A DNA stretch of 64,000 bases from positions 1,703 to 65,702 of the forward strand of contig JAFGWI010000009.1 of the NCBI GenBank assembly GCA_016937215.1. Reading direction: 5' to 3'. The position numbers were made by a program, and so were the translations under genes. This DNA comes from Spirochaetales bacterium (GTDB lineage: Bacteria; Spirochaetota; Spirochaetia; SZUA-6; JAFGRV01). The notes beneath the pieces were generated by a model. It did not search any database and had not been told where the DNA came from. It saw nothing but the letters and a program-made list of their open reading frames with translations. Below are positions 1 to 49,681 of this stretch, in pieces. Each line of letters opens with the position of its first letter. The stretch's first letter is position 1.

Positions 1-593
1 TCCGGGGCCTGGGGAACACAAAGCCTTTTGAAACTTTCAGCTTGCTCCATATTATCGAAATTATTGCACGGCAACTCAAAGCCACAGATTTTTTAAGCCA
101 TTTCACATCCTTTGCTTCGAACTGGCAATTCATGGTGCTTTTATTTTCCGCCATCATGGTGCTTCTTTCACGCTACAAGCGTCCGAGCCTGGGTCTGAGC
201 CTCATGATTCTGGGCTATTTTCTGGCCTCACCAAAAACCACCGAGTTTCACCTAAGCGCGGCACTGATCATGGGCATTCTTATGCTTTCGGCCCTCACCG
301 CGGAACCCAAAAGCCGGAACAGCCCTATCTACCTGGGGTTTACCCTGGCAGCACTTATCGTGTTGACCTTGCCGAGTCTTTTTGTATTTCTGGACAGGGT
401 AAAAGATGTCTCCCTATATGAAGTCACTACAGAATGGTCATTTTTCCGGAAATTCATGCTCAGCTTTCCCAAGGTTATTGCCACACTGGGGCTCTACCTC
501 ATCGCCTTAATGAAAATGACCTCCATGGGTTTAAAACTCCCCTGGCAGGAATACCGGAAAAAACTTCAGCCCCGGGAACACGGTATTTTTTAA
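1..593 (+). CDS. Polytopic membrane protein, 5'-truncated by the window edge. The reading frame is open back to position 3 and the ORF track starts at a TTG.
   Basis: Continuous ORF with several hydrophobic helices. It is the only substantial plus-strand gene and is convergent with the downstream minus-strand operon. Confidence 0.4.
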   Translation, partial: RGLGNTKPFETFSLLHIIEIIARQLKATDFLSHFTSFASNWQFMVLLFSAIMVLLSRYKRPSLGLSLMILGYFLASPKTTEFHLSAALIMGILMLSALTAEPKSRNSPIYLGFTLAALIVLTLPSLFVFLDRVKDVSLYEVTTEWSFFRKFMLSFPKVIATLGLYLIALMKMTSMGLKLPWQEYRKKLQPREHGIF

Positions 594-624
594 AAAGGCA
601 TCTCATAAATTAGCCAGGTATTTT

Positions 625-1340
625 GGGCGTTGCCTTTTGAAGAGAACTTCAAAAGGCCGGGCTTTCCAGGGCTCCGCTTTGCTTCGAAGTCCTCGGCGCT
701 AAAAAATAGCGCCTCCGGGCTTCAGCCCTCCTTTTTTGAAAAAAAGGAGGGCTGTCCTTCCAATCCCTAACGCCAGAAGCAATACCCTTGGTTCTTCCAA
801 AATCATCGCATCTCAAAAAACAGCACCACCTTCCTTTCCGCGCCAAAATGCTAATTTACTATTTTATAGATAAATAGATAAGGGGCCAGGAAATGCTGGC
901 ACCCTTATTTGCCTCAAAGGATGAAAGCCTTTTATTAAGAACAATTTATTATGGATGAAAAGGGGTTATTTGTTTCTGTAATAGCTGAAACAGGTTTTTT
1001 AACAGGAAGATGGCAAAAAAAAAAGGCAAAAAAAAACGGTATGCCTGGATGTCTTGGTGCATACCGTCTCATGTACATTCGATGTTAAACAGCGCTGTTA
1101 ATAATATTTTCGGCCAGGGGTTTAAAAACATTAAGTGAGTTTTCTTTTTTTTAGCGATTTTTATCAAATAATTCCGCATTCATTCATTGCTGGCCAGGAT
1201 CTATCGCCTTAGGGATTGGAGAGGCAGCAAGGCCTTTTTTCAAAAAGGACTTGCTGAAACCCGCAGGCGCGATTATTCGCGCCGAGGATTTCGAAGCAAA
1301 GCGGAGCCGCGGAAAGCCCGGCCTGCCTTGGGTTTAAGGC
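625..1340. repeat. Palindromic repeat element copy A. A forward unit (625-774) and an inverted unit (1204-1340) flank a ~430-bp A-rich core.
   Basis: It shares the motifs GGGCGTTGCC, GGCCGGGCTTTCC, CCTCGGCGC..AT.GCGCCTCCGGG, TTTTGAAAAAA and CAATCCCTAACGC with loci at 19043, 27749 and 49352. The right arm is the reverse complement of the left arm. Confidence 0.6.
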
Positions 1341-1439
1341 TGGTGAAGCACTAAAAAACTCAGCAACTTACTGTTGATTAAAAAAATTGAAGGCAGGCAA
1401 GGCCCGGATAATTCAATTATTTCAGACTTTTCCTGAAGC

Positions 1440-2066
1440 TCAGGAAAAATACTTTTTGGTGAACAATAACAAGGCCTTTTTCTTCAGGCTTTTTTGGGCG
1501 TCCTTCATGGCAACGATTAAAAGGCTGTTAAATGCCTTGATGTTGGCCATGTTTTCCAGGGTTTCCAGAATGATCATCCGGATCTTCACCGAGCTTCGAA
1601 GGTAGAGCGCGGCCAGCTCGGAGCCGCTTTGCATGATATTCAGCTGCCCCACTGCTGCTATGGCACAGGCCACCACTTTTTCATCATCATCCCACAGGCC
1701 TCGTCGAATAAAGGTATAGGCCGCTTTTTTACGACTGGCGACCAGTTGATTGATGATCTCGATGCGTTTTTTAGAATCATTCTGATGTAAAAAGGATTTT
1801 CCCAGAGTGTATTGCCTGTGAACCGACCGCAATTTGGTTAAAAAGGAATCCTCTGTTGCTGATGTTCCTGTTTCCCCAGGCTGGCTTAATTGTTTTTGAA
1901 GGTTTTCAAAGGCCTTTCGGATTCGGTGAAATTGATTTAGGGCGTTCTGGCCCTTATTCACATCAGGGTGATACAATTTTAGTAAGCGGCGGTAGGATTT
2001 TTTGATTGTTTCAAAGTCAGCTCCTGGCTCCACTTCCAGAATTCGGTAAATTTGCAACATGGTCAC
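1440..2066 (-). CDS. J-domain protein (DnaJ-like N-terminal J domain, HEAT/ARM-like helical C-terminus).
   Basis: The N-terminus reads IYRILEV..DFETIKKSYRRLLKLYHPDVNKG with an HPD motif. It overlaps the upstream SBD gene by 4 nt. It is the last gene of a five-gene minus-strand operon. Confidence 0.75.
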   Translation of the reverse strand: MTMLQIYRILEVEPGADFETIKKSYRRLLKLYHPDVNKGQNALNQFHRIRKAFENLQKQLSQPGETGTSATEDSFLTKLRSVHRQYTLGKSFLHQNDSKKRIEIINQLVASRKKAAYTFIRRGLWDDDEKVVACAIAAVGQLNIMQSGSELAALYLRSSVKIRMIILETLENMANIKAFNSLLIVAMKDAQKSLKKKALLLFTKKYFS

Positions 2067-2671
2067 AGGCTGGCTCTTTTCACAGCCTCGGCCTCGGCAA
2101 TAAGGGTTTCAAGTATCAAGGGCATTTCAATAATGGCCTGCCGATGTTCACGCTTAAGAGCCTCCTGAGCGAGAGTAAGATTTTCATAAATTTCAGAGGC
2201 AAAACTGCCTGAAAGAAGATGATGCTCCTGTGTCATTAACTGACTCAGGTGGCTGATATGCCTTTGAAGCCTGGTTTTTCTGTGATTCAGGTCGTCGCTC
2301 AGAAAATCCAGATTAAACACCTCGTCATAGCTTTCCACTGACAGGGTTTGAATCAGCTGCTTTTCGCTGGCTGTGTCCTCCATTTTGAGGGTGATTAATC
2401 CATGGGAATCAATGTGTATGGTCAGATCAATTTTGGGCTGGCTCTTTTTCTGGGCTTTTAATCCGGAAAGGACAAAGCGACCCAGTGATTTATTTTTGTG
2501 AGCACAGTCGGAATTTCCTTTGAGCAAATGAAGCTCAATGGAAAACTGGTTATCTGAAACAGTTGTTATGCTCTGAAAGGACTTTGCCGGTAATGGCGAG
2601 TTTTTTGGCACAAGTTTATAAAAGACATTTCCATCAATTTCTATTCCAATTGAATAGGGCAATTGATTCAT
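2063..2671 (-). CDS. Hsp70 (DnaK) substrate-binding-domain-only protein with no nucleotide-binding domain.
   Basis: Residues 5-105 align with the DnaK SBD-beta (SIGIE.DG....L..KN..P.K..Q.F.T..DNQ..I.L..G......NKSLG.F.L.G.........I..T..ID..G........EKQ). A helical lid-like tail follows. The N-terminal 380 aa of Hsp70 are absent, and the gene begins 6 nt after the upstream stop. Confidence 0.75.
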   Translation of the reverse strand: MNQLPYSIGIEIDGNVFYKLVPKNSPLPAKSFQSITTVSDNQFSIELHLLKGNSDCAHKNKSLGRFVLSGLKAQKKSQPKIDLTIHIDSHGLITLKMEDTASEKQLIQTLSVESYDEVFNLDFLSDDLNHRKTRLQRHISHLSQLMTQEHHLLSGSFASEIYENLTLAQEALKREHRQAIIEMPLILETLIAEAEAVKRASL

Positions 2672-2676
2672 CGCGG

Positions 2677-3273
2677 CTATTCCTTTGACAATTGTTCGGC
2701 CAGGGAAATAATAAGCTCAACCTCACCCACAGGAAGATCAACTTTCGAGGCAATCATCGCCGGTGTGAAGCCCTCGCTGTAATACATCAAAACTTTGTCC
2801 TTCAAGGGTAATTCCTCACTGATTTTCAGCGAAGGTGAGGGCTCAATTGTAACTGGCCGCTTTTTACTGATAATATCATTATATTCAATAGAGACCGAAG
2901 GCCTTCCTGTGTCACGTTTCAACAGGGCGATCTTTTTATCAGCCAGAATAAGATGCTCTTTTAAAAGACGAATTCTGTCCTCAATCAGCTGAATATTCTG
3001 ATCAGTGGTTGAATTCAGTTCCACTAAAATTTTTTCAACCTCTCCAGAAATATCATTCAAAATTTTTTGAGGGTGTACCATTCTTTTGATCCGTGCCCAG
3101 AGTATAAAATAAAGAATGGCCAAGCCGCTAACAACAATGGCTAGGGTTAGTATAAAGTTTTCCATATCAACTTCTAAAAATGAATTTTTTTTACGACCGT
3201 GACAAACCGCCATGGGCCGTTTCTCTTTTGACTGCTGGGGTTCCGCGAAATCCTGCCGCAGCCATTTTATCAT
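2677..3273 (-). CDS. Membrane-anchored coiled-coil protein. The C-terminal 30 aa weakly resemble a sigma region-4-like HTH.
   Basis: One TM helix (FILTLAIVVSGLAILYFILW) followed by a coiled-coil. The tail KVLMYYSEGFTPAMIASKVDLPVGEVELI parallels the fliA region 4 ([21 protein letters not shown]). The true start is possibly the internal Met before the TM. Confidence 0.5.
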   Translation of the reverse strand: MIKWLRQDFAEPQQSKEKRPMAVCHGRKKNSFLEVDMENFILTLAIVVSGLAILYFILWARIKRMVHPQKILNDISGEVEKILVELNSTTDQNIQLIEDRIRLLKEHLILADKKIALLKRDTGRPSVSIEYNDIISKKRPVTIEPSPSLKISEELPLKDKVLMYYSEGFTPAMIASKVDLPVGEVELIISLAEQLSKE

Positions 3274-3281
3274 AACACCAA

Positions 3282-3611
3282 TCAGGTGGTAATATCAATA
3301 TGCTGTCCCAAATCCGGGTCATGGTACACTTCTTTTTTATTTTTTTCTTCCAATTGTTGCCGCTTGTTATCTTTATTTTTCCGGTTCCTTTGCTCCTGTT
3401 TTTTTTGGCCTTCCTGGTTTACTTTATCGGCCCCCTCACCTATTTCCTGGGATTCATCAACAATGGTATCCTTAATTGCTGCCTGTTCTGCCAGCTCCAT
3501 TCCCTGAACCATCTGGGTATGGGGCAAATTCTCCTTAATATGGGCCTGTTCTTTACCAACCTGATTGATATGAGAAAACATCGTCTGCAAATCGATAGGA
3601 AGCATTGGCAT
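3282..3611 (-). CDS. Small charged hypothetical protein.
   Basis: 109-aa ORF, 4 nt from the FapA-like stop and 9 nt from the next gene. Lys/Glu/Gln-rich tail. No family recognised. Confidence 0.45.
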   Translation of the reverse strand: MPMLPIDLQTMFSHINQVGKEQAHIKENLPHTQMVQGMELAEQAAIKDTIVDESQEIGEGADKVNQEGQKKQEQRNRKNKDNKRQQLEEKNKKEVYHDPDLGQHIDITT

Positions 3612-3614
3612 AGG

Positions 3615-5555
3615 TTAGACAACTCTCCTTTTAAATTCTTCTTCGATGGCTTCGTATTTGGTAATACGAATCGTATTGTGTTCCAAAATAAAGGTAACAA
3701 ATTTGAATTCGTTTTTCACTTCCAAAAAAGCATCCTTAATATATAATTTGACTCCGGGAAAAACCTTTTCCGATGCGGAAATTTTACCGTCTTTTTTAAG
3801 AGCATCAAGATGCTCCCGGATTTCATTCATTTCCACATTCACCTGCTCAAGTTCTGCCAGACAGGTGTCTCTCTTTCCTGTAAGCTCTTGCAGATTGGCT
3901 TCCTTATCTTCTGAAAGCTTTCTTTGAACTTTTTTTAGATTCAAGAGAGTTTTGATATTGAGTTCAATTTCTTCCAGTTCTTTTTCAATTTCCATCTTAT
4001 TCTTTTCACAATTGACCAATTTTTCCTTGCTCAAGGGGTCATAACCCACTTCAAGAACTGTCTCTGTTCCCGCGATGGAGCCCAGGTTTTTCGCGTTAAT
4101 TTCTTCAGCCGCGCGGAGGTTTCCTCCTACAATTGAAGCCCGCCTTCCCTGGCAAATAATTTTTTTATTGGCATCCACATTGGAATGAAGAATACCTTCA
4201 TTAACCATAACATATTCAGAGGCCTCAATTTTGGCATGCTCGATAAATTTGGAGAAAACACTTTTGCCGCTTCTGACTTTACCTCCGTTTTTGCCTAAAA
4301 TACCCTGGTGCACAATAACATCACCCTCGGCATCTAGAATGCATTTACCCACATTACCCTTCACCTCGATATTTCCGGCTGCCTTTACGCTAAACCCATC
4401 CAACACGCTTCCCTTGATTATAACCGTTCCCAGAAAAAGGATATTTCCGGTTTGCAGATTAACATCACCATTAACTGTATAAATGGGTTCAACATTAATG
4501 CGGCCGCTCAAAAGCATAACTTGCCCATTTATTTCCGATATGGCCGTTGTACCGTCTTCAGAGAGCTTAACGTTTTTACCGATTTGGATTACTGTATCAC
4601 TGCCCGATTTGGCCGGTAAATTTTTACCAGTAACTGTTTTCCCATTAACACCCTTTTCAGGCAAGGTTTTTTTTGCCAAAACCTGACCAGCCACAACATT
4701 CTCGATTAAATTCAGCTCTTTAAAATCAACGCGCCCATCCTCTTCTTTAAGACTTACATTCTTGTGATCTGTATTAAAATGATATTGTATCTGAGCATCA
4801 TTACCATTAACAGGTTTCTGCCCCTCGGCAATTAAAATAGAGGTTGAATACTGTGGTCTGTCCTCGAATTCCTTAACAATATCTTCTTTAATTCCAAAAT
4901 AAACACCGTTATTTTCCAGAATCTTCTTGATATTTTCTTTGGATAAGTCAGCTCCACCGAGACGGGGAGGACTTACCTCCATGTAAACCTTCATTTCCAT
5001 ATCAACGATATCAACTGTCATAGTCGCGTCATTGATCGGGTTATAATCAAATTCTCCCACCTTTACCCAACGGTTTTCCGCGCGTTTCACCACCTTGGAT
5101 ATCATGGAGCTATCGTATTTGGTCACACCTCGCTTTAAAACCAAATCCAGGGCATTTTTCTCATTTGCCATCTTTCCCCTGCCAACGGCTTTTGTCACCT
5201 TAATATAAGCGCCATCATGGGTCAGGCGCACAAAAACCTCGCCATTGGCATCGCGTTTCTCGGTAATGTCACCAAAATCCTCAACAGAAAGATTCTCCAC
5301 TACACTATCGGCAGCTACCAGCTCTGTTCCTTCATAGACAAAAAGTTTCCATTCCTTGTCACCCACGCCAAACATGGCTTTCTGTCCTTTTTGGATTACC
5401 TCGTATTCCAAATCCTTTACAGGAATGCCCAATTCAATAGACGCATTGAGCAATGCCTCATTTATACTTTTACCCGTAATTTCAATGGTTTTATTACCCC
5501 TATCTTTTTCAGACTGGCGGTTCATAAATTCCCGTAATTGTGAAAGATTTACCAT
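3615..5555 (-). CDS. DUF342 / FapA-like (flagellar assembly protein A family) beta-helix protein.
   Basis: 646 aa. The central region has repetitive G-N/D-V/I-x-hydrophobic beta-helix repeats (GNILFLGTVIIKGSV..GNIEVKGNV..GDVIVHQG). C-terminal coiled coil. Shine-Dalgarno AAGGA sits 6 nt upstream of the ATG. First gene after fliA. Confidence 0.7.
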   Translation of the reverse strand: MVNLSQLREFMNRQSEKDRGNKTIEITGKSINEALLNASIELGIPVKDLEYEVIQKGQKAMFGVGDKEWKLFVYEGTELVAADSVVENLSVEDFGDITEKRDANGEVFVRLTHDGAYIKVTKAVGRGKMANEKNALDLVLKRGVTKYDSSMISKVVKRAENRWVKVGEFDYNPINDATMTVDIVDMEMKVYMEVSPPRLGGADLSKENIKKILENNGVYFGIKEDIVKEFEDRPQYSTSILIAEGQKPVNGNDAQIQYHFNTDHKNVSLKEEDGRVDFKELNLIENVVAGQVLAKKTLPEKGVNGKTVTGKNLPAKSGSDTVIQIGKNVKLSEDGTTAISEINGQVMLLSGRINVEPIYTVNGDVNLQTGNILFLGTVIIKGSVLDGFSVKAAGNIEVKGNVGKCILDAEGDVIVHQGILGKNGGKVRSGKSVFSKFIEHAKIEASEYVMVNEGILHSNVDANKKIICQGRRASIVGGNLRAAEEINAKNLGSIAGTETVLEVGYDPLSKEKLVNCEKNKMEIEKELEEIELNIKTLLNLKKVQRKLSEDKEANLQELTGKRDTCLAELEQVNVEMNEIREHLDALKKDGKISASEKVFPGVKLYIKDAFLEVKNEFKFVTFILEHNTIRITKYEAIEEEFKRRVV

Positions 5556-6072
5556 AAGTTCCTTCTTGGCTTTATTAAAATCCTCTTCGGGTCTGGACTT
5601 TAAACATCCTCCCCATCTTCAATAATGGCTCCTACCCTTTAAATATAATAAAAAACCAGGAGTGTTGCTATTTATTTACAGTTATTTGCATCATAGTATT
5701 TGTTCAGCCCATTGTTTTCCTGGAGCTTTTTCCTGGCCTCGAAAAGTTTTGAGCCGGTCTTTGGGCTTGCTGGTCATAAAGGCAAGCCAATTTATTGCTC
5801 GATTGTGAGTTTTTAAAACAAGCCCAAAGCCAAATCAGCAAAGTGAGTTTTTATGGCCTGCCTCATCATGGATCCAAAGACCAAGCTATTTTGCCGAAAT
5901 AAAGCATTATGCTAAACAACTTATTTTTTCTCACTCCAGTAGTTGCCCAAAAACAAAAAACATAAAAACCCTGGGTTAAAAGCCGTTAAAACCTTCAATC
6001 AGGTAAAATTGTCTTTGAGCAGCCAAGAAATGAGTGAAAAAGATGCAAAACCTACATTAATTATCGGCTAGT

Positions 6073-6858
6073 TTATATAATACCTTTTTTAATATTGCTT
6101 AATTTTGTACGTAATCGCATGATGGCTTTGGTATGCAATTGGGAAATCCGGGATTCGGTGACACTTAATACTTCACCAATTTCCTTGAGGGTCAAATCTT
6201 CATAATAATATAGCACAAGAACCTTTTTTTCTTTGTCAGGCAGTTCACTGATCGCTTCCACAATAACCCGCTTGATTTCATCTTTTTCCACTATCATGTC
6301 GGGATTCAGACTGGAAGGCGACTCAATACTATCTTCAATCGATATTTTATCACTATCCTCCCCTGTGCTCCACACATCATGAAGCGAGAGAATGGATGTT
6401 CCGCTTAATTTCAGCAAAAGCTGCTGAAATTCGTTTAAATCCATATTCATGGCCTTGGCAATTTCTTCATCAGTGGCCACGCGACCAAGCTGGGCTTCGA
6501 GAATACGTACCGTTTCTTCAAGTTCACGACTCTTTTGACGAACAGAACGAGGCACCCAATCGATTGATCGGAGCTCATCGAAAATAGCCCCACGAATACG
6601 GGTAACCGCGTAAGTCTTGAATTTTACGTGTTTATCAGGATCAAATTTCTCAATGGCATCGAAAAGTCCGAAAACACCATAACCAACAAGATCATCAAAT
6701 TCCACATTATGAGGCATGCCCATGGCAACTTTTCCAGCAACATATTTTACAAGAGGAGCATATTGTTTGACAAAAAAATCCCTGATTTTCGGATCCTTTT
6801 TGCGTTTGTACTGCTTCCAGAGATCCTGTTCTGATTTTCCTTCCAAGGTATTAACCAT
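6073..6858 (-). CDS. fliA: Flagellar sigma factor sigma-28 (FliA/SigD/WhiG family).
   Basis: Region 2 ([19 protein letters not shown]) and region 4 ([27 protein letters not shown]). 261 aa, downstream of flhF-flhG. Confidence 0.9.
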
Positions 6859-6863
6859 ATACT

Positions 6864-7613
6864 CTATCCTTCCTTGTCCCGCTGTAACCAGGTGTGAATT
6901 GCTTGCGCAGATTTACCCGGATCCTGAAGATATTCAGGAACATCCATTTTGGAATTCTTCTTTTCAGATGGTGAACCAATCTCCTCCCCACTGGAGGATT
7001 CAGAATTAAAGGTCGAAAAGGTGCCATCAAAATTATCCAGGGAAGGCATGTCGTCAATACCCATGTTATCAATGGTCGCGACATCATCCATTACCTGGCT
7101 TGGTTGATCATCATCGTCGAAATCAGCATCACTTTCATCATATCCAGAGCCTTTGCCATTATAGGAAACCGATTCAGCAGCGGCTGTTTCCTCAATATTC
7201 GATAAATCGGAAGAATCAAAGGATTCCGCGGCATCCATATCCGCACTATCTTCTGATTCAAGCTTTTTTTTGTTTTTTCGATAGGAACCTGCGGCTGAAG
7301 ATTCCTTTACCATATCCAATTCTTCACCAAAATCAGCCTGATAATCCTCATAGGGATTTTCACTATCGATTATCTCATCAATTTCAGTTCCTTTAGCCGG
7401 TTTCTCGATTGGATTATTTCCCGAAGAAGTTAATTCCGGTAAATAGCGATCGATAATAAAACCAATCCCAAAACCAAGGCCTCCGAAAATAACTGCTCCG
7501 AAAAGGGATCTTACGATAATTTCCCAAAAAGGTACACCGCCTATACCACCTGCCAGTATGGATAAAATCATAGCCACCAGAGCAAAAGCAATGATCACCT
7601 TCAAATTAACCAT
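6864..7613 (-). CDS. Hypothetical two-TM protein with a long acidic Asp/Glu/Ser-rich tail.
   Basis: The N-terminal 65 aa are hydrophobic and Gly-rich ([10 protein letters not shown]). The remainder is acidic low complexity. The gene sits between flhG and fliA, where Bacillus carries its che genes. Confidence 0.55.
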
Positions 7614-7734
7614 AAAATTTCCTCAATTTAAGATTAAAGTAAAAGCCCAAGTCAGTCAAGTTCCGATTTTTCTGTTCATGATTTGCCACTAAGGAATTAT
7701 CCGCGACCTTAGTTACAGTCAACAATCCGGCCAA

Positions 7735-8604
7735 TTATTGCTCTCCTCCGAATAATTTTTTCAAGAACCCGCCTATACCGCTGCCTTCTTTGTATTCAAT
7801 ATTCTCAAGGCGTCCAACAATATGCTTCACACACATCGAAGCCTTGGATTTTCCGTCAACAATCAAAAAGGGACGCTGCTTAACAACAGCAGTATGAACG
7901 ATGGGATCATCAAAAACAAAACCAAGATAATCAACCTTGAGATTCAAAAACTGCCCGGCGATATTAATCACACGTTCAGCGACCTTTCGGCCCTCAGCCA
8001 CACTTTTGACTTTGTTAACCACAAGCTTTAAACCAATATTAATGTTATCAATCTCGGTCGCGATAATCTTGATAATGCCATAGGCATCGGTGATGGCTGT
8101 TGGCTCGGGAGTCGTGATAATCAAGGCATCGTCAGCTGAAGCGATAAAGGACAGCACATTGTTGGAAACACCGGCCCCTGTATCAACAATCAACACATCA
8201 GCCTCGGAAAGGGCGCTGAATTCGGTTATGATATTATTCCGTTCATCCTCTGACAGATTGGCAATTTTGGAAAAGCCCGATGCTCCGGCCACAATCTGAA
8301 TACCGTAATTAGTATTCTGGATGATTTCTCCCATCTTTTTTTGTTTGCGAATAAGATGATAAAGATTATAACGCGGAATAATCCCCAAGACCACATTCAC
8401 ATTGGCTAATCCAAGATCAGCATCCATCACCACCACTTTTTTACCTAACTGGGCATAAGCGATGGCCAAATTGATGGCAATATTGGTTTTGCCAACTCCT
8501 CCCTTTCCACTGGATATGGCAATTATCCGTGTATTTCTGCGTGTACCTGTTTTTCCCATTATTTCTCGTAATTTCTGTGCTTGATCCGCCATTTTTAACT
8601 CCAT
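7735..8604 (-). CDS. flhG: MinD-like ATPase FlhG (YlxH/FleN).
   Basis: Deviant Walker A SSGKGGVGKT. Overlaps flhF by 10 nt. Confidence 0.85.
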   Translation of the reverse strand: MELKMADQAQKLREIMGKTGTRRNTRIIAISSGKGGVGKTNIAINLAIAYAQLGKKVVVMDADLGLANVNVVLGIIPRYNLYHLIRKQKKMGEIIQNTNYGIQIVAGASGFSKIANLSEDERNNIITEFSALSEADVLIVDTGAGVSNNVLSFIASADDALIITTPEPTAITDAYGIIKIIATEIDNINIGLKLVVNKVKSVAEGRKVAERVINIAGQFLNLKVDYLGFVFDDPIVHTAVVKQRPFLIVDGKSKASMCVKHIVGRLENIEYKEGSGIGGFLKKLFGGEQ

Positions 8605-9782
8605 AGGCTATTGATTGGGGAAAGCTTTTTCCCGTATTTTTTATCCAAATACTCCCGGTCAAGATGAAAACCCTCAAGTTTGAGAATCAACTTTAAAATA
8701 GTTGCTTCTTCTATATCCTGGGGAACAACCTGACCATCGGTAAAATATGAAACCGGTTTTTGCTTGAGAATCAAGGAACTGATAACATTACCAATACTGC
8801 TGGTTTCATCAAGCTTTGTTATTATTATCGACTGATATTTAAAGGGCTCAAATTGTCTCAGGATTTCTTCCATATCCGAGGCTTTTACCGAGGCGCTCAT
8901 GGCCAGATGGGTATCATTATCAGAGCCCACAGCCTCCAGTACCTTCTTCATCTCGGCCAGTTTATCATAATCATTGGGACTCTTTCCAATGGTATCGATC
9001 AGGATCAAATCAGTGTCATTATAAAGGGCCAGGGTTTTTTTAAGGTCCTCAAAGGTCTCGACAAAACTCACTGGAATTTGCATGATCTCGGCATAGGTCT
9101 CGATTTGTTTTTTGGCCGCGATTCTGTAATTGTCAATCGTAATCATTCTGACTTTTTTGCAAGCACCTCGCTGTGGATTTATCCCATGAATCGCAGCCAA
9201 TTTGGCAATGGTTGTGGTTTTTCCAACTCCAGTGGGCCCGACGATAGTACAAATATGGGGTTTTCTTGTGCTTTGGGAAAAGGGTTTATGGATTTTTATC
9301 CCATCGGCAATCCAGTCGATCAAAGCCTTGTGCACCATCTCCTTGTTATCCAGCTCCTGAAGAGAAAATTCCGACTCCAGGCGCTGCACCAGTAAAGCGA
9401 TTAATGTTTCGGAAAAATCATTTCGCTTGAGTAATTCAGTGTACTCATCCATGGCAGGATGGGTCCCGCGGCCGTCAAGGGGTTTTTGAGTGCTGATTTG
9501 CTCTTTTAAAGACTGAATTTCCTTTAAAATCATGGACATGGTGGTATCTTTTTTAACATTTTGAAGAATTTTCATTTTTTCAGTTTCAAGATTGAGTTTC
9601 GTCGAAGGACGCGATTCCGCCAGATAACCGGTAATCTCGATCCCCTCCTGGGCAAAAAAGCCTAAAAAACCGCCCCTTTTTATTCCGCGGTGAGTCAAAA
9701 TACGCGCGTTTTCACCATACTGCTCTTTCATGCGGTCGATTGCGTCCTTTAAACTATTTCCCTGCATTGTAAAATACTGCAT
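8595..9782 (-). CDS. flhF: Flagellar SRP-type GTPase FlhF.
   Basis: [22 protein letters not shown] and TKLDET motifs. Confidence 0.9.
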   Translation of the reverse strand: MQYFTMQGNSLKDAIDRMKEQYGENARILTHRGIKRGGFLGFFAQEGIEITGYLAESRPSTKLNLETEKMKILQNVKKDTTMSMILKEIQSLKEQISTQKPLDGRGTHPAMDEYTELLKRNDFSETLIALLVQRLESEFSLQELDNKEMVHKALIDWIADGIKIHKPFSQSTRKPHICTIVGPTGVGKTTTIAKLAAIHGINPQRGACKKVRMITIDNYRIAAKKQIETYAEIMQIPVSFVETFEDLKKTLALYNDTDLILIDTIGKSPNDYDKLAEMKKVLEAVGSDNDTHLAMSASVKASDMEEILRQFEPFKYQSIIITKLDETSSIGNVISSLILKQKPVSYFTDGQVVPQDIEEATILKLILKLEGFHLDREYLDKKYGKKLSPINSLWS

Positions 9783-9792
9783 TCACCGCTCC

Positions 9793-11874
9793 TTACTGCA
9801 CTCTTATCTCGCCAAGGCTTTCAACAGAAACCTCGGATATCATTTCCGGTATGGATAACACAACCAGATGGGGAATTTCCCGATGAGCGCTGGATTTTAC
9901 CAGATAACGTGCTGCTTCCGAACAAAGTATCACAGGATGATAGCCCTGTTCCTGAACAGCCTTGATCGAAGTTGTCAAAGCGCCTATCCATTTTCTTTGA
10001 ACCGAAGGCTCCAGAGCCGCGACCGGACCACTTGTTGTATCCACTTTGGATTCAATAATCTGGTGTTCAAAGGCAGGGGCAATGGTTAACACCCTGAGTT
10101 TTTTTTCTTCGTCAGCGTATTGAAGACAAATCTGCCGCCGCAATGACTGGCGTACTTTTTCTATTATATAAGAGGGATCCTTGGTTACATCACCATAATC
10201 GGTCATGGCCTCAAGAATGGTCACAATATTTCTGATGGAGATCTGTTCATCAAGCAAGCCCTGCAACACCTTGTGAATCTGGCTCAAGGTGAACATCTTG
10301 TTGACTTCATCAACCACAGCAGGATAATCATTTTTCAAAGTATCCAGGATAAGCTTCACTTCCTGACGGCCCAGGATTTCCGAAGCATGCTGCTTGATAA
10401 TCTCGGTAAAATGGGTTGCAATTATCGAAGGCGGGTCGACAACCGTATATCCGATTTGCTCAGCCTGTTCACGATAATCTTCTGACACCCAAATGGCAGG
10501 TAAACCGAATGCAGGGTCAAAGGTCTTTTCACCTGGAACTGTTTCAGTAATTCCGCCAGGATTAATGCAAAGATAATGGCCCATGCGGATCTTACCCTTG
10601 CCGACTTCAACACCCTTTATTTTAAAGGAATATTCCGGCGGCTCAAGGCGCATATTATCAATAATACGAATGCGCGGGACAACAATACCCAGATCCAGAG
10701 CCGATTCCCGGCGAATTCTCGTTATTCGGTTTAGCAACTCAGCACCCTGTTCCTTATCCACAAGAGGAATTAAGCCATAGCCGATTTCCAAAGACAAAGG
10801 ATCCAATGGCACCACAGGTGAAATCTCCTTGGGGGCTTCACCTTCCTTGGCCTTAACCGCCTTTACCTTTTCCGCGTCCTCTTGTGCTATAGCCTTACGC
10901 GACAAGATAATACCCAAAAAGCCGAGCAACAAAGCCAGTGGTACAAGCACATACCAGGGAAATCCGGGCAAAATACTTAAAACAAACAAAATCGCGGCAG
11001 ATATAAAATAAGGCCTTGCCTGCACGGTGAATTGATCGGTGACATCCTGGCCAAAGGATGCCTCTGATACGCTCCGAGTTACGATTATACCAGTTGATAC
11101 GGATACAAGAAGAGCAGGCAATTGCGAAACAAGACCATCACCAATAGCCAGTGGTATATATGTATTCAGTGCCAGATCCATGGATTCGGCATGCATAACC
11201 AGGCCAACTATCATTCCACCGATAATGTTTACCAAGGTGATGATAACACCGACCTTTACATTTCCCGAAACGAATTTTGAAGCACCATCCATGGCTCCAT
11301 AAAAATCAACCTCCCGTTGAAGCTGATGTTTTTTAAAGGTGGCTTCTTCTTCGGTGAGCAATCCTGAGTTATACTCTGCTTCTATGGCCATTTGTTTTCC
11401 TGGCAAAGCATCAAGAGTAAAGCGGGCCGCGACCTCGGCAACCCGGGTCGAACCTTTTGTAATGACCATGAGCTGAACAATCATGATAATAACAAAAATG
11501 ATAAGACCGATGACAATACCTTCAGAAGCAGCCGTACCGACTACAAAGGTCCCGAAAGCTCTGACGATTCGGCCGTCAAAATGGCTTCCTTCAACAAGAA
11601 TCAAGCGTGTTGATGAAATGTTCAGGCCTAATCCGAATACTGTTAAAATCAAAAGCAAAGTGGGGAACACAGAAAATTCAAGGGCATGCTTGGTATAAAG
11701 CACGGTTAAAATTACCAGAAGACTCAGAACCAGATTGATGGTCATAAGTGTATCCAGAATAAAAGTCGGCAATGGAATAATGATCATCATAACAAAAAGG
11801 ACCACTCCAATGGCAACAAACAGTTCCGTGGGTTGTTTAAAAAGATTTTGGGTTATTCTTTGCGCGTCAGCCAT
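9793..11874 (-). CDS. flhA: Flagellar export apparatus protein FlhA.
   Basis: 693 aa with an N-terminal 8-TM domain and a cytoplasmic C-terminus. Conserved FHIPxG-like region. Confidence 0.95.
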   Translation of the reverse strand: MADAQRITQNLFKQPTELFVAIGVVLFVMMIIIPLPTFILDTLMTINLVLSLLVILTVLYTKHALEFSVFPTLLLILTVFGLGLNISSTRLILVEGSHFDGRIVRAFGTFVVGTAASEGIVIGLIIFVIIMIVQLMVITKGSTRVAEVAARFTLDALPGKQMAIEAEYNSGLLTEEEATFKKHQLQREVDFYGAMDGASKFVSGNVKVGVIITLVNIIGGMIVGLVMHAESMDLALNTYIPLAIGDGLVSQLPALLVSVSTGIIVTRSVSEASFGQDVTDQFTVQARPYFISAAILFVLSILPGFPWYVLVPLALLLGFLGIILSRKAIAQEDAEKVKAVKAKEGEAPKEISPVVPLDPLSLEIGYGLIPLVDKEQGAELLNRITRIRRESALDLGIVVPRIRIIDNMRLEPPEYSFKIKGVEVGKGKIRMGHYLCINPGGITETVPGEKTFDPAFGLPAIWVSEDYREQAEQIGYTVVDPPSIIATHFTEIIKQHASEILGRQEVKLILDTLKNDYPAVVDEVNKMFTLSQIHKVLQGLLDEQISIRNIVTILEAMTDYGDVTKDPSYIIEKVRQSLRRQICLQYADEEKKLRVLTIAPAFEHQIIESKVDTTSGPVAALEPSVQRKWIGALTTSIKAVQEQGYHPVILCSEAARYLVKSSAHREIPHLVVLSIPEMISEVSVESLGEIRVQ

Positions 11875-11900
11875 TTACTTCTCCTTTCATGTTGATCATA

Positions 11901-13076
11901 TTATACTGCCTCAGCCCTTTTTCCGCTCATTTTATAAACTTCCGCCAAAATTAAAGCAACCACTTCCCAGTATTTTTCAGGAATGGAATCACCAATTTCA
12001 ACTTCATGATACAAGGCCCTTGCCAAAGGTTTGTTTTCCATCAATGGAATGTTATGCTCATTGGCGATTTCTCGGATTTTAAAAGCCACCTGATCAACGC
12101 CTTTGGCTAAAACAGAGGGACTGATCATTTTAGTCCTATCCCACGCCAAGGCCACGGAAAAATGGGTAGGGTTGGTGATAACCACATCAGCCTTGGGGAC
12201 TTCCTTCAAAACATTCCGCGAAAGCAATTCCCGCATACGCTGACGCATACGGCTCTTTATCAGCGGATCACCTTCATAGGTCTTGCGTTCTTCCTTGATT
12301 TCCTGTTTGGACATTTTCAAGGATTCCAGATGCTGACGTCGCTGAAAAAAATAATCAGGAATGGATAAGGCCAGCATGGCAATAGCCACCTGCAGGAAAA
12401 TACGAAAAGCAATACCGGAAAAAAAACCCAAACTATAACCCACCGGCGCCTTCATTAAAACAGCAATTTCCTTTATTTCCGCTGAAATATTCAAAAAAGC
12501 GATGATCACAACAATGAATACCTTTAAAAAGGATTTTAATAAATTAAAGCCCGCTTCAGCAGACAAAAAAGCCTTTTGCAAAAATTTGCCGAACTTGGGG
12601 ACTATCCTGTTGAAATCCGGTGTGATCGGCTTCACCGTAAAAAGAAAGCCCACCTGGAGCACATTACCGACAACAGCCGTTATAAAGCAAATGATGGTAA
12701 TAGGCAGCACCATGCGCAGAAAAAAATTCAAAAAAACCGGAGTCACCGTACTATTAGTGGCTATATCTATTTCAGTGGCATTTCCGAAAAAATACTTGAT
12801 CAAATCAATGGTATCATGAAGCAGATAGGAGGCCATTAACGCGATGGCGACCACAGCAAAAAGCAAAACAAGAGCGCCTGTCACTTCCTGAGACTTGGCC
12901 ACCTTGCCTTCTTCACGCGCTTTTTTTATTTTATGCTCGGTCGGCTCCTCTGTGCGACCTTCATCGTCTGCGGCAAACCATTGCAAATGCATATCAAAGG
13001 AAGTACCATGATTATCGAGCCAGCTTGGGGAAGCTGTGAGCCATGACCTTTGTGTATCAACGCCAATCTGAATCAT
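11901..13076 (-). CDS. flhB: Flagellar export apparatus protein FlhB.
   Basis: NPTH autocleavage motif (VVITNPTHFSVAL). 4 TM. Confidence 0.95.
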   Translation of the reverse strand: MIQIGVDTQRSWLTASPSWLDNHGTSFDMHLQWFAADDEGRTEEPTEHKIKKAREEGKVAKSQEVTGALVLLFAVVAIALMASYLLHDTIDLIKYFFGNATEIDIATNSTVTPVFLNFFLRMVLPITIICFITAVVGNVLQVGFLFTVKPITPDFNRIVPKFGKFLQKAFLSAEAGFNLLKSFLKVFIVVIIAFLNISAEIKEIAVLMKAPVGYSLGFFSGIAFRIFLQVAIAMLALSIPDYFFQRRQHLESLKMSKQEIKEERKTYEGDPLIKSRMRQRMRELLSRNVLKEVPKADVVITNPTHFSVALAWDRTKMISPSVLAKGVDQVAFKIREIANEHNIPLMENKPLARALYHEVEIGDSIPEKYWEVVALILAEVYKMSGKRAEAV

Positions 13077-19042: not shown

Positions 19043-19451
19043 GGGCGTTGCCTGCTGCCACAGCCCTATTCACTCCCGACAGCCTTTTTTAATAAAAATG
19101 TTCAGATGCTGAATAGCAAGCGGCAGCAGGCCAGGCTTTGCGCGGCTCCGCTGTTGCTTCGAAAGCCTGGAGCGCGAAATAATCGCGCCCCAGGCTTTTT
19201 GTGAATGTTTTTTGAAAAAAACATTCACCACCGCTCCAATCCTTAACGCTTTACACCAGATGTCCTTGCCAGGCTTAAAGCGCCATCCCTGTTTCACGCG
19301 TTAGGGATGGTTGCCATGGCTTGCCATTTTTTCAAAAATGGCAAGCCAAAGCGTTTTCGCGCGGATTATTTCCGCGCGAAAACCTTCGAAGCGCCTAGTG
19401 GAGTGGCAACAAGCCCGGCCTGAAAGCCCCCGGGCTTATCAGGCAACGCCC
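19043..19451. repeat. Palindromic repeat element copy B. A 409-bp imperfect palindrome with a perfect 12-bp terminal inverted repeat GGGCGTTGCCTG / CAGGCAACGCCC.
   Basis: The two arms are inverted copies of the same ~190-bp unit and meet at CAATCCTTAACGC...GCGTTAGGGAT. GC-rich hairpins. The copy sits between motB and fliL. Confidence 0.75.
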
Positions 19452-27748: not shown

Positions 27749-28074
27749 GGGCGTTGCCTGCCTCCCCTTCGGTCCGGCAGGCCGGGCTTTCCGCGGTATA
27801 AAATCCTCGGCGCGATTTTTTCGCGCCTCCGGGTTTCAGGCGCCCCTTTTTGAAAAAAGGAGCGCCTGCCGCTGCAATCCCTAACGCGCTACAGCGGGAT
27901 AATCGATTCACTATCCGCTTACGCTGTTATAATGGGTTAGGGATCGGAGCGATGCTTCGTCTCTTTTTCAAAAGTGACGAAGCAAAGCGTTTTTGGACGG
28001 ATAATTTCCGTCCAAAAACCTTCGAAGCGAAAGCGGAGTCGCCTAGAGCCCGGCCCGAGCCCCTTAAGGAATGC
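27749..28074. repeat. Palindromic repeat element copy C (326 bp). The left unit ends CAATCCCTAACGCGC and the right unit is inverted with a diverged terminus.
   Basis: Same motif set as copies A, B and D. Located in the fliG-fliH intergenic spacer. Confidence 0.7.
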
Positions 28075-49351: not shown

Positions 49352-49505
49352 GGGCGTTCCCTGCCTCCCTTTCAGTCCGGCAGGTCGGGCTTTTCAGCAC
49401 TAGGCCTGTCGGCTCCGGAAGCCTCGGCGCGAAATTATCGCGCCTCCGGGTTCAAACCAGCCAATTTTGAAAAATTGGCTGGTTTTGCTTACAATCCCTA
49501 ACGCG
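49352..49505. repeat. Palindromic repeat element copy D. A single unit beginning GGGCGTTCCCTG and ending CAATCCCTAACGCG.
   Basis: Shares the full motif set with copies A-C. Lies in the divergent region upstream of mraZ. Confidence 0.6.
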
Positions 49506-49681
49506 TCTCTCGCGGAAAAAAAGCAGACACCGCGCCCTGCGGCACTATTCTGGCCAAAGATAGCAAAAAGAAAGCTGCCAAAAGCCAAAAAGGACAGCCC
49601 TCTATTTCAACACAGGAGAAACAACTTGACTTTCTTCAAGCGAAAAGTTATTTTGAAACTCGTAAATAAAGGAGACAAGCT

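Follow-up and report, generated by a model that had tools for sequence, protein, structure and literature searches.

The flagellar gene array and its terminal block

The 64-kb stretch of DNA analysed here (henceforth the window; positions 1,703 to 65,702 of contig JAFGWI010000009.1, assembly GCA_016937215.1, from a Spirochaetales bacterium) is one minus-strand gene array, in which flhB-flhA-flhF-flhG, a gene for a FlgV-like protein and the sigma-28 gene fliA lead into a block of five closely spaced genes. This block encodes a FapA protein, a small protein (p109), a protein with a transmembrane (TM) helix, a coiled coil and a helix-turn-helix (HTH)-like C-terminus (p198), a protein that comprises the substrate-binding domain (SBD) of an Hsp70 chaperone on its own, and a J-domain protein with HEAT-like repeats (Table 1). 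Judged by gene order, the block is the predicted 3′ tail of the spirochaete flagellar (flgB-type) superoperon, and to this extent the arrangement is known; what is new is a seemingly selected variant of the flagellar-operon Hsp70/J pair that is devoid of the nucleotide-binding domain (NBD).

A check of the open reading frames (ORFs) of the window found all five genes of the block on the minus strand, with the content and tight packing that a preliminary description of this DNA had given. The 4-nucleotide (nt) overlap and the 517-nt leader of that description hold as well, while the gaps that it put at 4, 9 and 6 nt are in fact 3, 8 and 5 nt. Its assignment of a DUF342/FapA protein, an SBD-only Hsp70 and a J-domain protein was recovered by profile searches, and the flagellar context that it proposed is borne out by the genes from flhB to fliA upstream. 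Its view of the five genes as an unrecognised, self-standing system has to be abandoned: the first three genes have been published, and the block is the tail of the superoperon and not a separate operon, because fliA and fapA adjoin or overlap in about 75 related loci. Nor is the arrangement a product of chance, since the same gene order is found in independent genomes. Downstream of the J gene the window contains no further minus-strand gene, and neither cheA, cheW and cheY nor a second Hsp70 gene was found anywhere in its 64 kb. A hairpin located there probably marks the 3′ end of the transcription unit; the scans for promoter and terminator consensus sequences gave matches at background level only.

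Table 1. Genes and features of the superoperon tail (window coordinates).
Feature	Coordinates	Strand	Evidence or remarks
fliA (sigma-28), directly upstream of the block	6073..6858	-	NCBIfam FliA/WhiG 7e-87, PRK06288 2e-128; Sigma70 r2/r3/r4 domains
fliA-fapA spacer, 517 nt	5556..6072	-	fliA stop to fapA start
fapA (DUF342), 646 amino acids (aa): Jag_N, FapA_N and FapA beta-solenoid; bb0267 orthologue	3615..5555	-	Pfam
Small protein p109, 109 aa; by its position the counterpart of BB0266 and of 'YjfB' in the FlgV paper	3282..3611	-	
TM, coiled-coil and C-terminal HTH-like protein p198, 198 aa, DUF6115/DUF2802-like; positional equivalent of BB0265	2677..3273	-	
Hsp70 SBD-only protein, 202 aa: SBD-beta and helical lid, no NBD or linker	2063..2671	-	Pfam, AlphaFold2, Foldseek, synteny
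Class-C J-domain and HEAT-like repeat protein, 208 aa; its first 4 nt lie within the SBD gene	1440..2066	-	Pfam DnaJ, HEAT_2
Weak terminator-like hairpin just past the J gene stop	1394..1406	-	consensus scan only

Domain composition of the SBD-only protein and its J-domain partner

The match of the SBD-only protein to the Pfam HSP70 profile is limited to profile positions 391-492 (9e-21). Residue numbers are those of the E. coli DnaK protein, with the register of the reference sequence checked at 14 positions. The protein begins three residues ahead of the equivalent of DnaK T395; its N-terminus (MNQLP-YSIGIEI) contains no residues of the interdomain linker (VLLLDV), and the catalytic residues of an NBD (D8, K70, E171, D194, T199, D201) are missing. 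What is present is the SBD-beta sandwich with its hydrophobic pocket and an alpha-helical lid. An AlphaFold2 model with a mean confidence (pLDDT) of 90.1 depicts an eight-stranded SBD-beta sandwich followed by a three-helix bundle, and a Foldseek search with this model returned the SBDs of DnaK proteins as its top matches in the PDB (1e-16), with a root-mean-square deviation of 1.2 Å over 114 columns of the beta domain to 4ani_C. The orientation of the lid in the model is non-canonical when compared with that of closed DnaK. The positions that line the pocket are either kept or conservatively replaced (I401, F426(I), Q433, V436(I), I438(L)), and the two arch residues are altered (M404D, A429V). 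On the HscA model the protein scores 85 bits against a cut-off of 709. An isolated DnaK SBD stays closed and binds peptides with high affinity and slow exchange.

The partner protein has a J domain over residues 6-58 (Pfam DnaJ, 3e-15) that carries the HPD motif and a basic helix II (KKSYRRLLKLYHPDV) and matches J domains in the PDB. It belongs to class C, as neither DnaJ_C nor CXXCXGXG matches were found and a HEAT-type domain takes their place. The window protein matches HEAT_2 only weakly (0.008; NblB-like HEAT, 3e-5), and this assignment is backed by a HEAT_2 match of 1.3e-7 in the orthologue at locus L060. A single-sequence AlphaFold2 model is all-helical, with a pLDDT of 67 that is too weak for a fold search. 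J proteins of class C pick their clients via the non-J domain, as HscB does with IscU.

The Hsp70/J pair in related spirochaete loci

Eighty species-level loci (designated here by L numbers) and several additional contigs were fetched with FapA as the anchor and annotated by phmmer and hmmsearch. FapA was chosen because alignments of the SBD offer too few conserved stretches for locus scans. A word-indexed homologue search with the SBD of the window alone returned two proteins, an exhaustive HMMER search returned mostly ordinary Hsp70s, and two metagenome scans for nearer relatives of this SBD found nothing. The best 'two-stretch' hits of the exhaustive search (P0140, P0142, P0128, P0133) were rejected as unrelated; they are large Hsp70-family proteins with a duplicated SBD-beta, and some also carry a Ser/Thr kinase, GrpE-like or DnaJ_C domain as a fusion partner.

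Among the loci with at least 3.5 kb of downstream sequence, positions 4 and 5 of the block exist in several states. A full-length Hsp70 (533-607 aa) followed by a J+HEAT protein was found in 19 loci, usually with a gene for a CheA-like protein (Hpt and HATPase_c) next in line, and an SBD-only protein (186-239 aa) with a J or HEAT-only partner, followed by cheW-cheA-cheY, in five. Three loci possess J+HEAT (or HEAT) alone, two possess an Hsp70-derived gene alone, and 33 have neither gene; the rest contain partial forms. In 29 loci the gene of an Hsp70 or SBD protein is followed by that of a J+HEAT orthologue. Hsp70-derived and HEAT genes strongly co-occur (both, 29; Hsp70-derived gene alone, 2; HEAT gene alone, 3; neither, 33; Fisher p = 2.5e-13, uncorrected for phylogeny). 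In the gene neighbourhoods of related genomes, which the preliminary description had proposed to compare, genes 1-3 are found everywhere, and the SBD-only gene with a J partner in a scattered minority only. Judged by the genes that surround it in the related loci, the Hsp70/J pair sits at the junction of flagellar and chemotaxis genes.

The combination of an SBD-only and a J+HEAT gene seen in the window recurs in the same layout at L003, in a JGI contig and in L086, a 1.5-kb Logan contig that contains the tail of p198, an SBD of 203 aa and a J protein of 208 aa. In the subclade of L030, L035, L042 and L051, the J domain is gone, and a HEAT-only protein of about 140 aa stands beside the SBD-only gene. 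L049 (12845-14125) encodes an Hsp70 of 426 aa whose NBD is degenerate (K70 lost, E171R, T199R, D201A); at L080 (12892-13419) the first 44 aa of an Hsp70 NBD are fused to HEAT, with the rest of the Hsp70 and the J domain deleted; and at L042 (2700-3962) one ORF joins the TM+HTH protein to the SBD. An error in the metagenome-assembled genome (MAG) is possible in each of these three cases. L078 has a truncated form and L025 a 137-aa fragment without J. The 'partial NBD' forms of L015 and L084 were rejected, as they are interrupted by runs of N, i.e., by assembly gaps; these two loci come in addition to the 19 with a full-length Hsp70. In many loci the p198 and Hsp70 genes abut or overlap, including BB0265 and BB0264 of Borrelia.

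The CheA-like gene that follows the pair in the full-length clade (L019, L053-L065, L070, L075, L076, L082 and others) encodes a protein of about 600 aa (e.g., L060 7454-9268), in which Pfam sees only Hpt and HATPase_c; the other clade has a normal cheW-cheA-cheY set.

Probable evolutionary origin and loss of the NBD

The full-length proteins at position 4 match the Pfam HSP70 profile over positions 1-526 at 1.9e-153, are followed by DnaJ+HEAT_2 proteins, and keep all six catalytic residues of the NBD. They score best on DnaK models, yet below the NCBIfam cut-off (559 vs 648 bits), and their assignment to HscA was rejected (401-408 bits vs a cut-off of 709). A profile built from the SBD-only proteins gives these operon paralogs 139-221 bits, and canonical-like DnaK proteins 112-124 bits. 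SBD-only and full-length forms share the signature T403I, M404D/E and A429V/I, and both keep the pocket residues I401, F426, Q433, V436 and I438. The gene in the window occupies the same position, following fapA, the small-protein gene and the TM+HTH gene at the end of the superoperon. Because of this shared position, the profile scores and the common signature residues, we regard the SBD protein of the window as a truncated orthologue of the operon Hsp70 paralog; that it derives by truncation from the flagellar-operon Hsp70 of an Hsp70/J pair is very probable.

The preliminary description found a J protein beside an NBD-less Hsp70 mechanistically puzzling and saw in the two what looked like a two-component, chaperone-like module. 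Such a pairing is better understood as what an ordinary Hsp70/J pair became on losing a domain than as a designed module, because full-length Hsp70 and J proteins are encoded at the same position in many spirochaetes. On a FapA tree the SBD-only forms turn up in several places (the window; L026; L003; the L030 group), the full-length form of L018 lies in the same large clade, and the truncation boundaries differ between SBD-only forms. The scatter and the differing boundaries indicate at least 2-3 apparently independent losses of the NBD, along with many losses of the whole pair.

The J+HEAT proteins of the window, of L086, L003 and L026, and all those that accompany a full-length Hsp70, have an intact HPD and basic helix II, and the J domains of the NBD-less lineages are about as similar to each other as those of the full-length lineages. 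Among the loci compared, HEAT is the piece most persistently kept.

Selection on the SBD-only gene

The clade of L030, L035, L046 and L051 allows an estimate of selection, with dS values down to 0.60. There, the SBD-only gene has a dN/dS of 0.15-0.17, compared with 0.07-0.09 for the full-length paralogs and 0.08-0.11 for FapA. The window and L086 are 57% (SBD) and 52% (J+HEAT) identical at the amino-acid level, and their synonymous sites are saturated; as NG86 dS values are unusable in this situation, uncorrected pN/pS ratios with bootstrap were calculated. They amount to 0.29 (confidence interval 0.24-0.36) for the SBD and 0.37 for J+HEAT. All four ORFs are intact and nearly constant in length (202/203 aa for the SBD, 208/208 aa for J+HEAT). 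Constraint on the SBD-only gene is relaxed yet clearly present, in the manner of purifying selection, and there are good grounds to believe that the SBD-only protein has retained a function.

Relation to known chaperone systems

In Borrelia burgdorferi the flgB superoperon extends from bb0294 to bb0264, and bb0267 has been named fapA (PMC11607428). Its last gene, BB0264, is annotated as dnaK-1, and under this name the Hsp70/J pair of the flagellar superoperon has been present in annotations since the Borrelia genome; a signature-tagged mutagenesis screen in mice identified transposon mutants in BB0264, BB0266 and BB0267 as attenuated. We found no functional study of the superoperon pair in the literature. 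Order, strand and sizes of the Borrelia genes resemble those of the window (FapA 634 vs 646 aa, small protein 102 vs 109 aa, TM+HTH protein 173 vs 162-198 aa, then an Hsp70-family gene). In contrast to the window, Borrelia has no fliA, no J gene follows the Hsp70 gene, and lepB-3 lies on the opposite strand. Compared by position, annotation and coordinates only, BB0264 (491 aa) is long enough to contain an NBD, whereas the window has a 202-aa SBD alone and a J+HEAT gene. Close counterparts of the window pair are the full-length pairs (e.g., L060, L057, L073, L083), which share with it an orthologous SBD, the signature residues, a J+HEAT protein with HPD and the position after the TM+HTH gene; they differ in their intact NBD, in their (modified) linker and, usually, in the Hpt+HATPase_c CheA-like gene that comes next.

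Diverged Hsp70s encoded beside a dedicated class-C J protein are familiar from HscA-HscB and HscC-DjlC; the J protein probably delivers a specific client through its C-terminal domain. Unlike the window protein, which is a member of neither group, HscA and HscC keep their NBDs and serve in Fe-S assembly or stress and not in a flagellar context. Truncated derivatives of bacterial DnaK that lack domains and are retained beside a canonical DnaK have been catalogued (YegD and the 'derivates' of Myxococcus; PMC13580251), but these keep the NBD and lose the SBD, the lid or the linker, whereas the window protein has lost the NBD. Two reviews of bacterial Hsp70s, PMC13580251 among them, cover DnaK, HscA, HscC and the NBD-retaining derivatives, and include neither NBD-less nor spirochaete flagellar Hsp70s.

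The yeast ribosome-associated complex (RAC) offers an analogy of function only. In it, Zuotin forms a complex with Ssz1, an atypical Hsp70, and uses its J domain to activate a second, canonical Hsp70 (PMC13580251); this second Hsp70 is Ssb. A non-cycling Hsp70 thus has as its stable partner a J protein that acts in trans. The polarity is reversed, however: in Ssz1 it is the SBD that is truncated, and the NBD is kept; RAC is eukaryotic and ribosome-bound, and homology to the window pair is limited to the Hsp70 and J folds.

An NBD-less derivative beside a J partner with an intact HPD motif mirrors the catalogued NBD-retaining forms and offers a natural means of testing whether an SBD can function without ATP and whether a J domain acts in trans. 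The series from full-length Hsp70 with J+HEAT, via SBD-only with J and SBD-only with HEAT-only, to nothing reveals which parts travel together. Should the SBD-only protein be a dedicated holdase, it would be the first naturally NBD-less Hsp70 with a function to be described, and a natural dissection of the ATPase-dependent activities of Hsp70. The finding does not open up a question of long standing, and evolution has been able to dispense with the module.

Possible function of the reduced pair and competing explanations

On balance, we lean towards the view that the window encodes a reduced Hsp70/J pair in which a selected SBD-only protein serves as the client-holding subunit and is coupled to J+HEAT. 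The ancestral pair would have been an ATP-driven chaperone specific for a client among the components of the flagellum or of chemotaxis. In the lineage of the window, NBD and linker were then very probably deleted, with the SBD keeping the peptide pocket of the paralog; the SBD and HEAT parts would still be able to bind the client or each other. The SBD-only protein may thus act as an ATP-independent, high-affinity holdase or adaptor for the client of the ancestral paralog, and the retained HPD-bearing J domain may recruit the housekeeping DnaK in trans for an ATP-driven step, similar to Ssz1-Zuotin. The preliminary description had already raised the possibility of clients being handed to the housekeeping DnaK, and we keep it as our best guess at the mechanism, although this specific in-trans step must be called rather doubtful. 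It is a matter of speculation whether the client is the TM+HTH protein or the basic-hydrophobic tail of FlgV; these two come to mind because of the translational coupling or fusion with the TM+HTH gene and because of the acidic arch residue. We put forward only tentatively the more general picture of an Hsp70/J+HEAT system dedicated to the flagellum, in which a recurrent loss of the NBD (at least 2-3 times) left an SBD-only holdase in a RAC-like complex with J+HEAT, borrowing DnaK via the J domain or, in one subclade, dispensing with ATP, and with a client in the FlgV/FapA/TM+HTH module.

Several observations weigh against the reduced, client-holding pair that we favour. At similar FapA divergence, SBD identity is 0.22-0.33 among SBD-only lineages and 0.35-0.62 among full-length ones, so that the SBD-only forms evolve faster. 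The three closest relatives of the window (L005, L006 and L085; FapA 69-72% identical) have neither gene, as is true of about half of all loci, and the sub-lineage of the window is represented by one other contig of 1.5 kb only. Because the L030/L035/L042/L051 subclade keeps the SBD-only and HEAT-only proteins without a J domain, the J-DnaK step cannot be essential to the pair. The count of NBD losses, furthermore, depends mainly on the FapA tree and the truncation boundaries, as a neighbour-joining tree of the SBDs was poorly resolved, with outgroups that were not monophyletic, and too noisy for counting.

The principal alternative dispenses with an Hsp70 ATPase altogether: the SBD-only protein and the HEAT domain would assemble at the base of the flagellum into a static complex that serves as adaptor or holdase and may be anchored by the TM+HTH protein. 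The J domain in the window, instead of recruiting DnaK, would have stayed on as a structural relic or would offer a docking surface for the SBD. The J-less subclade, with its SBD dN/dS of about 0.15-0.17, shows that the pair is viable without any ATP-driven step too; the retention of HEAT with a 44-aa NBD stub at L080, the p198-SBD fusion of L042 and the many loci in which the p198 and Hsp70 genes overlap or abut also fit an autonomous module. The L042 fusion may, however, be a single-indel MAG error. In the window and at L086, L003 and L026, moreover, neither HPD nor the basic helix II has been lost, and conservation of the J domain there matches that of the HEAT part (0.32-0.50 vs 0.29-0.62), an indication that J function has remained under selection; we therefore consider this explanation unlikely, if worth keeping in mind. 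Still less probable is that the SBD-only and J genes are functionless remnants of a pair in the process of being lost. Decay of this kind would account for the patchy occurrence of the pair, which has repeatedly been lost as a whole, also among the nearest relatives, for the intermediate wrecks at L049, L078, L025 and L080, and for the accelerated evolution of the SBD-only forms; it is difficult to reconcile with ORFs of constant length and a preserved 4-nt overlap between genes as diverged as those of the window and L086, with their low pN/pS values, with the dN/dS of 0.15 at a dS of 0.6 in another SBD-only clade, and with conserved pocket residues in a confidently predicted fold. An artefact of assembly or annotation, by which the NBD was frameshifted, split or lost in the MAG, is effectively refuted. 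Such gaps do underlie the partial forms of L015 and L084, but in the window the SBD gene starts a mere 5 nt past the p198 stop, which leaves no space for an NBD of about 1.1 kb, runs of N are absent, the independent contig L086 has the same layout, and L003 and the JGI contig have the same architecture.

The sigma-28-linked genes upstream of the pair

Genes 1-3 of the block represent a universal sigma-28-linked sub-module that is already described: Zamba-Campero et al. (2024; PMC11607428) reported a conserved set of sigma-28, FapA, YjfB and TM+HTH genes following FlgV, and the window matches it in the order FlgV, sigma-28, FapA, small protein, TM+HTH protein. The main text of that paper contains no occurrence of 'Hsp70' and mentions no J protein. 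Genes for FapA, p109 and p198 follow fliA in all of the more than 80 related loci with enough downstream sequence. The FapA protein of the window has Pfam matches to FapA (6e-75), FapA_N (3e-49) and Jag_N (4e-13), the FapA_N and FapA beta-solenoid profiles (PF20250 and PF03961) being covered in full with scores above gathering. It has 1977 homologues at E<=1e-10; the best are 54-72% identical, and the named ones among those listed are all spirochaetes.

In an alignment, p109 has conserved ends (N-terminus MPxxPIDLQTLF, C-terminus DPDLGxxIDIxG) and a charged, variable middle. The published YjfB assignment of this protein was not recovered by Pfam in the window: YjfB_motility (PF14070) matched one of 25 p109 orthologues, weakly (E 0.098), and p109 of the window has no significant Pfam match and no PDB match. 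The profile matches of p198 are weak and C-terminal (DUF6115 4e-4, DUF2802 0.04, NCBIfam SpiroCoCo_C 8e-5), and its alignment comprises a TM helix, a coiled coil and the motif GFSxxxIAxxxGxPxGEVELIISL. Ahead of the TM helix, p198 of the window has 36 aa more than its orthologues. Its start is uncertain: it may lie at 3273, which implies a lineage-specific cytoplasmic extension and keeps the usual 8-9-nt gap, or at M37 (position 3165), where the orthologues begin.

Between flhG and fliA lies the gene for the FlgV-like protein (6864-7613, minus strand; 249 aa), which has no Pfam or NCBIfam match. It begins with two TM helices, the second of which contains an Arg, continues into a disordered tail of acidic character and has at its C-terminus a short peptide that is hydrophobic and basic. 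It thereby fits the published description of FlgV (BB0268 family), and its position is kept in nearly all related loci.

The fliA-fapA spacer and a dispersed repeat family

The 517-nt spacer between fliA and fapA is peculiar to the window; it measures 207 nt in L085, and in most other loci at most 36 nt or a 4-nt overlap is found. It contains no credible ORF and no unusual fold (fold z-score -1.45). Rfam searches over window positions 1-12000 gave no match, nor did searches for a full sigma-28 consensus (TAAA-N15 type). A perfect sigma-28 -10-like octamer (GCCGATAA) is present at 6061-6068, 5 nt past the fliA stop, without a canonical -35. This octamer may possibly be a lineage-specific internal promoter and is kept as a lead only, because four of its six copies in the window (two expected) lie on the non-coding strand and one lies within a gene.

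The window also contains a dispersed family of intergenic repeats of about 110 nt, often arranged as pairs of inverted copies that face each other. Copies are present at 654-773 (plus strand) and 1202-1324 (inverted), at 19157-19249 and 19296-19393, at 27795-27891 and 27936-28029, and at 49412-49506; two of them border the J gene at its 3′ end, in the region without Rfam matches. The family looks like an element of the repetitive extragenic palindrome (REP) or miniature inverted-repeat transposable element (MITE) type, or like a structured RNA, placed in the gaps of a co-directional flagellar operon. Its tail is conserved (CCAATCCCTAACGC), and it has a GC-rich hairpin (GCGCGAAATAATCGCGC). In a second hairpin the loop is conserved (TTTTTGAAAAAA), and the stems vary from copy to copy yet stay complementary (CCCTCC/GGAGGG, GAATG/CATTC, CCAGCC/GGCTGG).

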